This document shows, in pieces, positions 33,371 through 61,258 of a stretch of DNA of 64,000 nucleotides. The stretch's first letter is position 1. Each line of letters begins with the position of its first letter. The position numbers and the translations under genes are program-made. Source of the DNA: Eledone cirrhosa (taxonomy: Eukaryota); the NCBI GenBank assembly GCA_964016885.1, contig OZ024745.1, positions 71,424,001 through 71,488,000 of the forward strand, written 5' to 3'. The notes beneath the pieces were generated by a model. That model was not told where the DNA came from and did not search any database. It saw nothing but the letters and a program-made list of their open reading frames with translations.

Positions 33371-33492
33371 GTATCTGAAGTATTGTTCAAATATGAAGAA
33401 TGTTTTAGAAGGTATTAGGTTAGACATAGCCTTGTCCAACTATCAAAGTTATACATACATACATACATACATACATACATACATACATACAT

Positions 33493-34341
33493 ACACGAAA
33501 TACCTGATTCACAAAAGAGATAGGGATGCAGGCAAAACACCTAGATATGACAAGTGCAGACTCTGCAGAATTAACATCGAAGATGTCATCGCGGTACTAT
33601 CTACCAATGAGGCATGATGTAGTGGCCAAAACACTGTACAATGTAATCCGTAGAAAGGATAGCCCTGATAAACACATTAAAAGCTACAGCAATGTGGAAG
33701 ACATACATACACGTAATATGAAAGAGTACTGGTGGAATGTTCCAGTAAAACCCCCAATAAAATGCAGGCATAACAGACCAGATATAATGATATGGGACAA
33801 GGAAAAGAAGGCATGCACAGTAGTGGAAGTTAGCTGCCCAGCAGATGCCAATATAATATCAAAGATTAGCGAAAGGGAGAATATTTATGCAGAACTAATG
33901 AAAAATCTGCAGATACGCCACCCTGATTATACCTTCAGATTTATGCCTGTGGTCATTGGGGCACTGGGATATGTTAGTAACTGCCTCAATACAAATCTTG
34001 AGAAGCTGGGCTTCACAGGAACAGAAAGAACACAACTAGTTAGAAAATTACAATTACAATCGATTAATGGAACAGTAAAAATATGTAAAACATTCCAAAC
34101 ATTTTGGATCTAATAACTGCATATACACATGTACAGATACAAAGCGTATGCACATGCACACATACAACTCAAAACATCCACATCCACACATACAATAACA
34201 TCCATATCTACACATGCAGACATACAGACATATCTACCTAGTTGATGTTGTGTAAATTCCAATGAGAGAGTCTCGTAACTATGTTAGAAACCGACTCCCT
34301 CTTTATTGGCAAAAATTTGTGAAATTATAAAATCAGAAGAA
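33493..34341 (+). mobile_element. R4/Dong-clade RLE retrotransposon, 5'-truncated (copy A)
   Basis: CRLC knuckle, RHD, RPD-x-VEVSCP and VVIGALG endonuclease motifs (ORF 33526-34113). 3' UTR matches 57158-57391. (CATA)n at 33451-33494 and CATACATA after 34341. Confidence 0.9.
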
Positions 34342-34632
34342 CATACATATATGTGTGTGTGTGTGTGTGTGTGTGTGTGTGTGTGTGTGTGTGTGTGTGT
34401 GTGTGTGTGTGTGTGTGTGTGTGTGTGTGTGTGTGTGTGCGCATCAGGACTTTCCTGATGATTTCTTCCCAATGAAACAGTTCTAGTCCTGCAGTCATTT
34501 CTATAATAAAATAACTATGTCTATACTCATATATATATATATAAATACATACATACATACATACATACATACATACATACATACATACATATAAATATAT
34601 ATATTTATATATATATATATATATATATATAT

Positions 34633-34810
34633 AGTAATAATAATAAATTTGAAGACTAAAATCCAAAGAGGGCTCGATAGGGATAAATATATATCAAATA
34701 TATAAGAACCGTAGAGCAAATATTTATTAAAATTAGTTAGTTTCAGAATATCCCGTTAAGGGTGAAAGCAGCCATTCTTTGCTTAAACTTTAATCTGTTA
34801 TTTTAATAAA
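34633..34810 (-). repeat. Short TA-microsatellite-embedded repeat, copy 3 (longest)
   Basis: Reverse complement matches the copies at 9840 and 11947. Confidence 0.75.
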
Positions 34811-57057: not shown

Positions 57058-57157
57058 TATGTATGTATGTATGTATGTATGTATGTATGTATGTATGTAT
57101 GTATGTATGTATGTATGCATGGATGTATGTATGTATGTATGTATGTATGTATGTATG
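57058..57157. repeat. (TATG)n microsatellite between copies D and E
   Basis: Direct reading. Confidence 0.95.
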
Positions 57158-60100
57158 TTCTTCTGGTTTTATAATTTCACAAATGTTTGCCAATAGAGAG
57201 AGAGTCGTTTTCTAACATAGTTACAAGACTCTCTCATTGGAATTTACACAACATCAACTAGGTAGATATGTCTGCATGCCTGCATGCATGTGTAGATATG
57301 GATGTTATTGTATGTGTGGATGTGGATGTTTTGAGTTGTATGTGTGTATGTGTATATGCTTAGTATCTGTACATGTATATATATGCAGTTATTAGATGCA
57401 ACATTTTTGGAATGTTTTACATATTTTTACTTTTCCATTAATAGATTGTACTTGTAATTTCCTAACTAGTTGTGTTCTTTCTGTTCCTATGAAGCCAGGC
57501 TTCTCAAGATTTGTATTGGGGCAGTTACTAACATACCCCAGTGCCCCAATAATCACAGGCATAAATCTGAAGGTGTAATCAGGGTGGAGTATCTGCAGAT
57601 TTCTCATCAGTTCTGCATAAATATTCTCCTTTTCGCTAATCTTTGATATTATATTGGCATCTGCTGGGCAGCTAATTTCCACTACTGTGCATGCTTTCTT
57701 TTCCCTGTCCGATATCATAATATCTGGTCTGTTATGCCTGCATTTTATTTGGGTTTTTACTGGAACATTCCACCAGTACTCTTTCATATTATGTATATGT
57801 ATGTCTTCCACATTGCTGTAGCTTTTAATGTGTTTATTATCGGGGCTATCTTTTCTACGGATTGCATTATACAGTGTTTTGGCCACTACATCATGCCTCA
57901 TAAGTAGATAGTACCGCGATGACATCTTTGGGCAGCTGCTGGTGACATGGGTGACATCTTCGATGTTAATTCTGCAGAGTCTGCACTTGTTATTACATCT
58001 AGGTGTTTTGCCTGCATCCTTATCTCTTTTCTAAATCAGGTATTTCGTGTTAATTTCCTGTTCTTGGATTGCAAAAGCGTATCCTTCAAAGTCGGGGCCA
58101 ATATAGCGGTTGTTGGTCCAAGTTAGACTACTTTCCTTATCTATATTACTCTCACTCTAGAGCTTCCTGGCAACATATCCATGCTTGATTTTTTGCTGAT
58201 AAGCATGCAGTTTTTCATCCATGAATTCACTGTGATACTGCTGAGCGACTTCTCTGGGTGTGAGTTTTTGATTATCACACAGGGAATATCTCTCGAGGAG
58301 TTCTTTCCTAACTCTCATGATCTTATCTGCTTCATGCAGATAGACTTGCACGAGAGACGGGCTCCTACGCTTCGAGGTTCGTAGATGTTGTCGGAGGGAT
58401 ATGAGGCGACATTCAAATGCTGTCTGGACTGATGTTAGGCCTCTGCCTCCCTGCTTACGTTTCAAGTAAAGGCGGTCTATGTCACTGTTGATGTGGAAGT
58501 TTCCGGTGTTGTTTAGTATTTTTCGAGTTCTAACATCAACTGCTCGGATTTCATCTATCGTCCAATTGAGTATTCCAAACGTTGGTGTTAGGACAGGCAC
58601 AGCAAACACATTGTGAGCTACTGTTTTGTTTTGCGCAGAGAGTTCCGATGACCATATCTTTCTTAATCGGATGTAGTATTCCCTGGTTAGGCGTTCCTTA
58701 TTACAGATACCATTATAGGATATGTTATCATCTATCCCCAGGTATCTGTAGCAGTCCTCATCAGATATCGGTGAAACAGTTCGGTCAAGATTTTTCTTCA
58801 TCCCATCTATGTTCTTGGCATAGAGTTTCAGATCATCCACAAAGAAATTATGGGTTAGGTTCATATTTCTGTCCTCCTGTGAGCCAACGATGTATCCTTC
58901 ACATTTCTTGAGCAGAAAGGATAAGGGGTTTAATGACAGGATGAATAATATCACAGAGAGACTGTCTCCCTGAAATATATCCCTGCGATATTTTATTTTA
59001 TCAGTGAAAATAGAGTCTTCCCTCTCTGTCTTTATCCTTAGGATAGTAGCCCAAGAAGAAGACAGCTTCTCTATGGCTCCGATAATAATGTCTGGGACTT
59101 TAGAAAGTTGGAGGTCCTCTATCATCCAAGAGTGGGGAACAGAATCGAAAGCTTTCCTGTAGTCCAGCCAAACCGTAGCCATATTCCTCCTAAGTTGTCC
59201 CACCTCCGACATCGCAGTTTTGTTGATTAGGAGTTGTTCAGCACATCCCCAAATCCCTTTCTTTCCAGCTGCTTGTTCATCTGTGATGATGTTATTATTT
59301 TCACAGTGATCTTGTAGGAATAGGTTCAGGCAGGCTGTATACATCTTATACATCAGGTTCTGGCATGCAATAGGTCGATAGTTTTTTGCCAAATGGGTGT
59401 CTTTGTTCTTTGGGACCAGTAATGTTTGTGCTAATGTCAACTATTCTGGTATAAGTGTATCTCCCTTAAGAACTTGTTGGTAGAGGTCAGTAAGATACCT
59501 CCGATAGAATATCAGTTTTTATTTTTGGACCAGTAACCGACAATCATGTCTCTTCCTGGTGTTTTCTTATCTTGGAGTTTTCCTATCACAGTCTCAAGGG
59601 TACCCTCACTTATTTCGTGTTTTTGTTGTAGTGTAGGAGCAATAGTTCTTTCGGATTTCTTTTAGCCACACTGCATCTTGGTTGAAATTCTTCTTTTCAC
59701 CCTATATTTTTCTCCAAAAGGAATCTGTGTCTTTCAGGGTCTTTCAGTGACACTTATTATTTGCCCTTCATATCTCTATAGACTGATGTTTGGTTTCGTC
59801 TGAATCTTTTATTAAGCACTTTTCTTTTATCTACCTTCTTTCATTAAGCACTTTTCTTTTATCTACCTTCTTCAAGTATCGGCGTTTTTCGTTAACAGCT
59901 CTCAATTCTTGTTTGAGGGTGATCAGTTTATATTGAAGAGTTCTGGTTCTAGTGTTACCAAACATCGTCTCTATTTTATTTTTCACTCTTTGTTGGTGGG
60001 GAGTGAGGTTTTTTGTGTTTGTTTGCATGTAAGGAGCATTGTCACATATCCTATGGTTTTTCGTAGGTCAGCAATCTTTTTTTCTATTTTAGTTATATAT

Positions 60101-61190
60101 GATGGTATTTTTGGTGGTGTTTTGTTTTTGTTAATATCTCTGCTATCACCAAGATAATGCTTCACTGCCGTTGCTAAGGCATATAAACAGGCGTTGATTT
60201 TCCAAAATGTTGGGGCTTTTATCCGTCATAAATATTCATCCCCTATTTCGGCAATAACACGTAATATTTCAGTATTTGGTTTTTTATTAAATATTGTTGT
60301 TTTAATACGTTCAGCAAGAGAGATATTTATACATGAATTAATTTCTCACTGGAAGATTTCGCTTAGGGAAATGTTCAATTGTTTATACTTTTGACTATTA
60401 TCATTATCGATAGTATTTTCCACAATAGTCGAGGTAGACTCGGATGGTACACGTGGTGTCAAATTTCTTCGATTATTATTATTATCGATATTGTTTTCTC
60501 CAGGATTCGAGGTAGACTTAGATGGTACACGTGGTGTCAAGTTTCTTACAGGCATAGTTGTTTCAAGGCACTGTTCGACCTGGCTGCTAGGAAGTTTAGT
60601 AGCATGGCGACCTGTAGCACCTGTTGTTGATCCCATGTTTGTTGTGGGGGACTTGCATTAATAATATTTATCTTATTTTTACGTTCAACAAACGTCGCTT
60701 GTTGGCGTAATTGTTTCGCTGTGAAGTGATTTAGCTCTGGGTGTATTTCGTCCCAGTGTAGCTTGATTCTGTTCATATAGCCAATGGAAGGATTGCTTTT
60801 TTGCCATTTTATAACAATTAAATAAATCATCATTAAGTTCGCAACTCCAAGAGAAATGCGATTTATAATTTCGGTTTCTTCTGTAGCTACAACTGAATAA
60901 ATTGTGTTTACCTTTCTCGTTGTTTTTCTTCGGTACTTTCTTAATGTTGTTGTTGTTGATGTTGTGTTCAGCCATGCTGTTTGTAGCAAATCCTTGTAAA
61001 ATGAATTATGTATTTAGTCGGATATCTCTACGAATTCGAATAAAAGGTGTCTTCAGTAAATATAGTTAGAAGAATAACCAGTTATTCAACATGACTGGTA
61101 GTTGTGGCATTACTGTCGGAGATAGTATTCATCTAAAATTTAATGAATAGTCTCCCACACCAAAATATGCAACTGATCGTGTTGACTGAC
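57158..61190 (-). mobile_element. Near full-length (~4.0 kb) R4/Dong-clade RLE non-LTR retrotransposon with disrupted ORF (copy E)
   Basis: N-terminal W..ELNDDLFNCY and GYMNRIKLHWDEIHP. RT at 58157-59440 (YRPIAC, WLDYRKAFDSVPHSW, FQGDSLS, FVDDLKLY, GGRGL). CRLC-H-C knuckle. RLE at 57392-57925. Contains stops and frameshifts. (TATG)n at both ends. Confidence 0.93.
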
Positions 61191-61258
61191 TATGTATGTA
61201 TGTATGTATGTATGTATGTATGTATGTATGTATGTATGTATGTATGTATGTATGTATG
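61191..61258. repeat. (TATG)n microsatellite at the 5' junction of copy E
   Basis: Direct reading. Confidence 0.95.

Follow-up and report, generated by a model that had tools for sequence, protein, structure and literature searches.

Two retrotransposon families in the genome of Eledone cirrhosa, F1 and F2, very probably target tracts of the tetranucleotide microsatellite (CATA)n. Both are present in a 64,000-nucleotide stretch of that 3.0-Gb, microsatellite-rich genome (C5:71424001-71488000, hereafter the window), where a sequence-only reading had described five insertions of one lineage of the R4/Dong kind abutting CATA at both ends. The coordinates proposed for these insertions (copies A to E) are right within 1 nt. 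CATA-phase repeats lie at both ends of all five, always on the element's sense strand, including in the oppositely oriented copy A, and copies A, B, C and E share a 3' junction in which CAGAAGAA is followed directly by CATA. The CATA association thus stands, but the single lineage does not, as the five copies belong to F1 (A, B, C and E) and F2 (D). The window alone is weak evidence because its four minus-strand copies form one nested TATG cluster rather than independent samples, with the tract between D and E originally counted twice.

Junctions were scored genome-wide in a sample made up of the best 40 hits from each of three DNA searches, which had 3138, 1702 and 491 candidates, with 59 regions extended. 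All F1 and F2 copies in loci L002-L194 and in the window were scored, leaving out four loci that lie inside the window. Chains spanned at least 100 bp at an identity of at least 85% (F1) or 88% (F2), a threshold that dropped the older 3' part of copy C. A 5' junction was called only where 60 nt or more lay upstream, copies that their local sequence marked as duplicates were removed, and CATA was assigned where at least 11 of 12 nt matched within 4 nt of the junction. The background comes from the same rule applied to 40,000 random positions in 20 regions of 10 kb (200 kb).

By this rule, sense-strand CATA adjoins 115 of 133 3' junctions (F1 56/67; F2 59/66, comprising 57 CATA and 2 CATA/TA ties), 34 of 39 full-length 5' junctions (F1 32/37, F2 2/2) and 83 of 116 truncated 5' junctions (F1 34/55, F2 49/61). 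The truncation points are nearly all different, with 52 distinct positions in F1 and 57 in F2, so that the occurrence of CATA at differently truncated 5' ends, first noticed in the window, extends to the genome. Tabulated against the microsatellite background, as had been proposed, most sampled 5' junctions abut a repeat that occupies only 0.32-0.41% of random positions per strand (binomial p ~1e-169 for the pooled truncated junctions against 0.41%). The idea that TA and CA runs are not the insertion sites also holds up: TA adjoins 0 and CA 1 of the 116 truncated 5' junctions although the TA background is 3.9%, and TA runs take 1 junction across all sampled F1 and F2 junctions. Perfect runs in the 200-kb random sample amount to 3.86% for AT, 0.88% for AC and 0.31% for ACAT. 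The association is orientation-specific, with TATG at 1 of the 116 truncated 5' junctions, and the phase of the 3' junction is fixed, 101 of 133 beginning with CATA. The single truncated 5' junction scored as TAA is an AAT repeat inside F1. Among the misses, most of the 5 at full-length 5' ends and several of the truncated ones show visibly degenerate CATA or later rearrangements.

A third and far larger family in the same genome, F0, has 42,119 candidates in a protein search and provides an internal comparison. Scored in 40 extended loci, its truncated 5' junctions carry TAA in 34 of 41 cases and CATA in 0 of 41 (Fisher p 1e-17). At the 3' end F0 copies continue into a degenerate AAT tail, and the cut-off scored TAA at 13 of 58 only; the 7 junctions labelled full-length are uninformative because the F0 reference lacks a true 5' end. 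F0 tract asymmetry is not significant (9 versus 6 of 15), and its RT core (RT, reverse transcriptase) is only 37-40% identical to those of F1 and F2. With F0 on TAA and F1 and F2 on CATA, related families with a restriction-like endonuclease (RLE) use different repeats in one genome without overlap. F0 loci L308-L377 (for example L348:1752-5174) hold many intact 1141-aa frames and many copies that are 98-99% alike, and the family is probably recently active.

F1 (4.1 kb) and F2 (4.2 kb) are ~63% identical in DNA over the RT region and 58% identical in the RT-core protein, and both are flanked by microsatellites on many chromosomes. Identity among F2 copies is mostly 95-99%, which indicates a young family. 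Each family has just one open reading frame (ORF), which encodes an RT of the type without long terminal repeats (LTRs), then a CCHC knuckle and then PD..(D/E)xK-type endonuclease motifs. LTRs are absent, and 5'-truncated copies have precise 3' ends, as in the R2 group of non-LTR retrotransposons. P0001, a 1040-aa open frame in a natural 5'-truncated F2 copy, matches Pfam RVT_1 and zf-RVT, contains the motifs FVDD, CX2CX8HX4C, RHD, RPD, EISC and KEDIY, and has R2 proteins as its best PDB sequence hits (E 1e-27); Pfam reported no apurinic/apyrimidinic endonuclease (APE) family in it. Judged by these sequence features, F1 and F2 are R2-group (RLE) non-LTR retrotransposons. Membership of the Waldo/R1 clade was rejected, as the RLE motifs are present and no APE family matches. 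R2-group elements can carry a self-cleaving ribozyme resembling that of hepatitis delta virus at the 5' end; for the F2 5' end and the window, Rfam gave only low-score microRNA matches on simple repeats, and no custom search was made.

Modelled together with 34 homologues, the N-terminal 97 aa of a full-length F2 copy are predicted to form a three-helix bundle (predicted local distance difference test 81). The model matches Zeste, GT-1, SANT and TRF Myb domains, the hits being mostly Myb/SANT/trihelix at Z 4.5-6.2. This domain is conserved across the F1/F2 clade, and no zinc-finger motif was seen in the clade's N-termini examined. An N-terminal diverged Myb/SANT-like domain without N-terminal zinc fingers is characteristic of the R4/Dong clade (PMC7998251 section 3.3), so the domain architecture of F1 and F2, with RT and RLE following such an N-terminus, fits the R4/Dong assignment made from the window. 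Dong in the narrow sense inserts into (TAA)n, scored here at 1 of 116 truncated 5' junctions, and nematode R4 in the narrow sense occupies a fixed site in ribosomal DNA (rDNA), in place of which F1 and F2 have their microsatellite flanks. Rfam found no ribosomal RNA in window positions 53000-62000.

The closest named protein is P0050 of Argonauta hians (65% across the part that matches and 68% in the RT core). Protein homologue searches returned almost no named relatives, and the ESM Atlas gave unnamed RVT_1 clusters only. Among the best 80 of 494 relatives in a metagenome scan, 7 belong to the F1/F2 clade. Three of their contigs carry (CTTA)n, at both ends (L228), the 5' end (L229) or the 3' end (L235); these three derive from two assemblies and are possibly not independent. 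No repeat is visible on the other four contigs. Among more distant contigs, 27 are labelled TAA and 5 TTA from repeats outside the ORF, with junctions not individually checked. In trees rooted on a distant RTE (FastTree with 119 RT cores, IQ-TREE with a subset of 51), a single clade unites F1 and F2 with the Argonauta hians protein and the contigs flanked by CTTA (Shimodaira-Hasegawa support 1.0 in FastTree; ultrafast bootstrap, UFBoot, 95, on a long stem). This clade is sister to all TAA- or TTA-labelled elements including F0 (UFBoot 81 for the TAA clade), and F1/F2 group at UFBoot 100 with the large TAA-flanked clade, called Dong-like from its flanks. IQ-TREE places F1 with the CTTA elements and F2 with Argonauta, so that CATA use either goes back to the ancestor of the sub-clade or has two origins. 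The F1/F2 clade is likely to have split from TAA-targeting Dong and to use tetranucleotide targets of the form C(A/T)TA. Because the related F0 sits in TAA repeats, F1 and F2 likely switched to a new four-letter target.

Taken overall, the best explanation is that copies reach (CATA)n, for the most part and in one orientation, through a protein that recognises an existing tract and inserts via target-primed reverse transcription (TPRT), an account we regard as probable. Tracts without any element do exist, making up 20 of 26 in the 200 kb of random sequence. Where the 5' tract of a solitary F2 copy reaches 12 nt or more, it is the longer of the two tracts in 28 of 35 copies, with medians of 80 nt (5') and 27 nt (3') and a shortest 5' tract of 25 nt. 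Simulated insertion into free tracts that requires ~40 bp upstream and 7 downstream reproduces the 5' lengths (Kolmogorov-Smirnov, KS, p 0.34). Microhomology of at least 3 nt occurs at 14 of 48 truncated 5' junctions of F2, against 7.7% expected (p 1e-5). In R2Bm, the N-terminal domains bind positions -34 to -22 and the RLE -6 to +1, with no need for downstream sequence (PMC10499050, in part). The longer 5' tracts of F2 fit R2-like upstream recognition by the predicted Myb/SANT domain; they also fit synthesis during insertion, since ~40 nt added at that stage would account for the tract lengths as well as the footprint model does.

We lean slightly towards a more detailed mechanism modelled on R2Bm. 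The element's protein would recognise a CATA tract already in place, its N-terminal Myb-like domain binding CATA ~25-40 bp upstream, and the RLE would nick the TATG strand. Only ~7 nt of downstream CATA would be needed for priming at the RNA 3' end, and the 5' junction would close when the end of the cDNA anneals, over 1-7 nt, to the upstream CATA end. The TATG-rich tails of RTE-family elements are a likely source of part of the targets.

The alternative that survives best, though we think it unlikely, is that a short CATAC-like motif is the real target and that the long 5' (CATA)n is made at insertion by RT slippage, snap-back or template jumping, so that the elements create or lengthen the microsatellite. 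The bimodal 5' tracts of 43 solitary F2 copies (8 copies at 8 nt or less, the other 35 at 25-174 nt, clustered at 60-100) speak for it, as do the many 3' tracts of only 7-12 nt and the free-tract medians of 20-31 nt. One case, the F2 copy at L101:820-2180, has an inverted 3' segment that bears (CATA)7 at each end and adjoins, back to back, a tract on the opposite strand; with this repeat at its 5' end, the inverted segment resembles fold-back synthesis or inversion at insertion. However, the same 5' lengths result if existing tracts are used with a weighting by length and 40 bp is required upstream, the 5' tracts of F2 are no purer than its 3' tracts (3.1% versus 3.7% mismatches), and long tracts free of R4 copies exist, for example beside Z2, an RTE-related element. 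Tract purity was also tried as a discriminator between old and new repeats and was rejected for want of separation.

Far less probable is the proposal that CATA is a 3' tail only, with 5' CATA supplied by the tails of neighbours or by passive build-up in microsatellite-rich DNA. Tandem arrays are indeed common, as with D behind E, and an adjacent R4 copy is present for 20 of 63 F2 and 17 of 64 F1 copies; by a rough pattern count, the end of an RTE-type element (the Z family described below, or RTE) lies beyond one tract, on one side, in at least 37 of 127 F1/F2 copies. Solitary copies nevertheless retain a 5' tract of at least 12 nt (F2 35/43, F1 33/47), which a 3' tail alone cannot explain. 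Passive accumulation predicts both orientations as well as TA, contrary to the near-absence of TATG and the absence of TA at truncated 5' junctions, and F0 in the same genome shows no CATA at all. This proposal is already largely refuted. Least probable of all is specificity mainly by RNA-DNA pairing, in which a read-through CAUA tail anneals to nicks or breaks made with loose preference in (TATG)n strands with little protein-DNA reading: 3' homology does improve R2Bm priming and permit retargeting (PMC10499050, in part), and Z2 copies with ATG/TATG tails also lie, more loosely, in TATG/TA-rich DNA, but the fixed 3' phase, the longer upstream tract in F2 and the clade-wide conservation of the N-terminal domain point the other way.

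Several observations weigh against recognition of an existing tract or narrow its support. The CATA rule failed at 33 of 116 truncated 5' junctions, and a sample confined to the best-scoring 40 hits per search is biased towards young copies. The F2 asymmetry test is conditioned on the 5' tract and weakens without this condition (29 versus 13 of 43, p 0.04), and F1 shows no unconditioned asymmetry (18 versus 26 of 47, p 0.83). The footprint model fits the 3' lengths marginally (KS p ~0.05), and its fit is poorer when the 20 random-region tracts are used (p <0.003). The like purity of 5' and 3' tracts does not favour it, and microhomology in F1 is not significant (5/34, p 0.16). The Z-scores of the N-terminal fold, all below 8, are weak singly but consistent across rows, and the trees include no named R4, Dong or Rex6 sequence. 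Finally, no empty allele was found. At L090, a young F2 insertion, no record spanned the site among contigs from three runs of one sample and restriction-site-associated DNA reads; searches with four flanks found no paralogous or haplotig empty sites, and flank pairs compared by BLAST with all loci gave only Z-Z or R4-Z junctions among the matches listed.

Within the window, copy A (F1, 33494-34341, plus strand, 88% identity to the reference) is 5'-truncated and comprises the RLE domain and 3' untranslated region, starting at position 3217 of the 4101-nt natural F1 reference copy in locus L036. Its 5' flank is (CATA)10 (33454-33493, plus strand); downstream there is only CATACATA (34342-34349), followed by (TG)44. 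Copy B (F1, 53767-54208, minus strand, 90% identity) is truncated at reference position 3649, with ~3 CATA units on either side (3' flank 53755-53766, minus strand; 5' tract 54209-54221). Copy C (54472-55573, minus strand) is an older F1-related copy of 79-86% identity truncated at reference position 3218, with 4 units 5' (55574-55589) and 3 units 3' (54460-54471); it is split at ~55086-55305 by an insert that we take to be SINE-like (short interspersed element). Some window tracts are thus as short as 2-3 units.

Copy D (F2, 56125-57057, minus strand, 97.7% identity to the reference) is 5'-truncated, contains the zinc knuckle and RLE, and starts at position 3287 of the 4222-nt natural F2 copy in locus L137. 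It has a 100-nt tract upstream and an 11-nt tract downstream (56114-56124), and its 3' end, GAGAAAGAGA(T/A)AA, is unlike that of F1; no match between E and D was found by BLASTN within the window. The 100-nt (CATA)n tract (57058-57157, minus strand) is both the 3' flank of E and the 5' flank of D. Copy E (F1, 57158-61190, minus strand) has both ends and is preceded by (CATA)17 (68 nt, 61191-61258, minus strand), but is broken by frameshifts, stops and a ~115-bp RT deletion relative to other copies. Its Myb/SANT-like region (~60660-60895) is divided by a frameshift, its RT frame spans 58157-59440 (Pfam RVT_1), and a CCHC knuckle and RHD and RPD..E..K motifs lie in frame 57392-58030.

A 78-bp tandem repeat lies in the F1 N-terminal coding region (window 60396-60547), together with AAT runs that differ between copies. 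F1 copies in L038, L041 and L044 carry insertions of different length at about the same TA-rich spot, F1 position ~1092-1111. These insertions have a TGTC repeat close to one end and end in CTAG/CTGG on the other side, and we take them to be Helitron/DINE-like. A duplicated segment at L116 and L136 (C2, ~80 kb apart) has a Ty3-like LTR element adjoining the truncated 5' end of an F2 copy.

The spacers between B and C and between C and D are Z elements, members of an RTE-related non-autonomous family of ~550 bp with 6583 candidates in the genome. A deleted copy (54222-54459, plus strand, opposite to the R4/Dong copies) ends in GCAGCCATC and then a TATG tail, and a second copy (55590-56105, plus strand) is flanked by ATG/TATG repeats. 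Z2 and Z3, which are related to Z, have 3' ends in common with RTE open frames, and their tails are ATG/TATG. Z-type elements are oriented opposite to F1 and F2, and their flanks are looser TATG/TA. The 5' flanks of Z, Z2 and Z3 copies (window; L151-L174, L195-L224) are rich in repeats whether the copy is full-length or truncated. Of 25 Z2 tails with no R4 copy upstream, 20 have at least 12 nt of CATA, which, together with the Z and RTE ends found beside F1 and F2, suggests that RTE tails likely supply part of the targets. Deletion of upstream DNA by R4 insertion, considered for a truncated Z2 before an R4 copy, was rejected because Z2 is frequently truncated where no R4 copy follows.

A much wider scenario, possible but doubtful, would make F1 and F2 part of an old, unrecognised sister clade of Dong that moved from (TAA)n to tetranucleotides (CATA in octopods, CTTA in a metagenome host). 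It would share a genome with TAA-using Dong by dividing the microsatellites, feed on RTE TATG tails and add tens of CATA bases at the 5' junction, thus acting as a direct microsatellite generator.

Other features of the window include an uninterrupted 265-aa protein kinase frame (30674-31471, minus strand), presumably NEK/NIMA-like and possibly a retrocopy or single-exon gene, and an array of ~43 copies of a 50-bp unit (46964-49115). A 348-aa frame with DUF4371 (51289-52335, minus strand) is presumably hAT-transposase-like, and a broken long interspersed element with RVT_1 (61456-63852, plus strand), which we take to have an APE-like N-terminus, lies just past the 5' tract of E.

Among retrotransposon targets the CATA motif as such has a precedent, because Waldo elements (WaldoAg1, WaldoAg2, WaldoFs1) use ACAY microsatellites, including (ACAT)n, which equals (CATA)n (PMC3812793, in part). 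Waldo is APE-type and belongs to the R1 clade by the title of a reference cited there. Unlike F1 and F2, Waldo has APE rather than RLE and insect hosts, so the similar motif represents convergence. As to the sequence-only suggestion of an undescribed CATA-specific lineage, no CATA- or CTTA-specific RLE element was found in the literature searched, with Repbase, Dfam and Fell 2025 outside that search. The Fell 2025 screen covers 4,464 assemblies (PMC13586686, in part), and the parts covered of PMC13295347, PMC13708176, PMC13586686 and PMC13580325 added no target data. In our judgement there is a real, if minority, chance that Repbase, Dfam, Kojima and Fujiwara 2004 or Fell 2025 already list a CATA element. 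Targeting of CATA is well supported and, within the R4/Dong kind, probably new as a target, a reading strengthened by the same-genome TAA control and the CTTA-flanked group. Related proteins with the simple targets TAA, CATA and CTTA form a natural series, and two of the three occur in a single genome that holds thousands of candidate copies. A long-standing question thereby becomes testable, namely which of the Myb domain, the RLE and the RNA tail determines where R2-group retrotransposons, a group being engineered for gene insertion, insert. In cephalopods, many CATA/TATG microsatellites may lie next to an element or be hotspots of insertion, which matters for the design of markers and for understanding how Dong-R4 spread through these repeat-rich genomes.

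Among known systems, Dong is the closest in kind. Dong, DongAg and DongBg are R4-clade elements specific for TAA microsatellites (PMC3812793, in part; PMC7998251 section 3.3), and, according to Schön et al., most insects, molluscs and cnidarians have TAA as the target. Like F1 and F2, Dong combines RT and RLE with a Myb/SANT-like N-terminus without zinc fingers, has microsatellite on both sides and inserts in a fixed orientation; unlike them, it targets (TAA)n rather than (CATA)n, and F1 and F2 fall in a separate clade from the TAA-using F0. Dong-R4 elements are abundant and partly recently active in octopuses, with 51 families and 92.7 Mb in O. vulgaris, and the parts covered of these reports give no insertion target for them (PMC13282606, PMC9115989, PMC8967140); F1 and F2 are probably inside existing octopus Dong-R4 repeat libraries. 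R2Bm and R2Tg, seen in the TPRT complexes 8gh6, 9dou, 9nl2 and 9nl3, have homologous RT, knuckle and RLE, but target 28S rDNA and carry one or more N-terminal zinc fingers plus Myb. Togen, which targets (TG)n, and some HERO families (PMC4640811, in part) are likewise microsatellite-targeting RLE elements, and differ from F1 and F2 in clade and in repeat unit.

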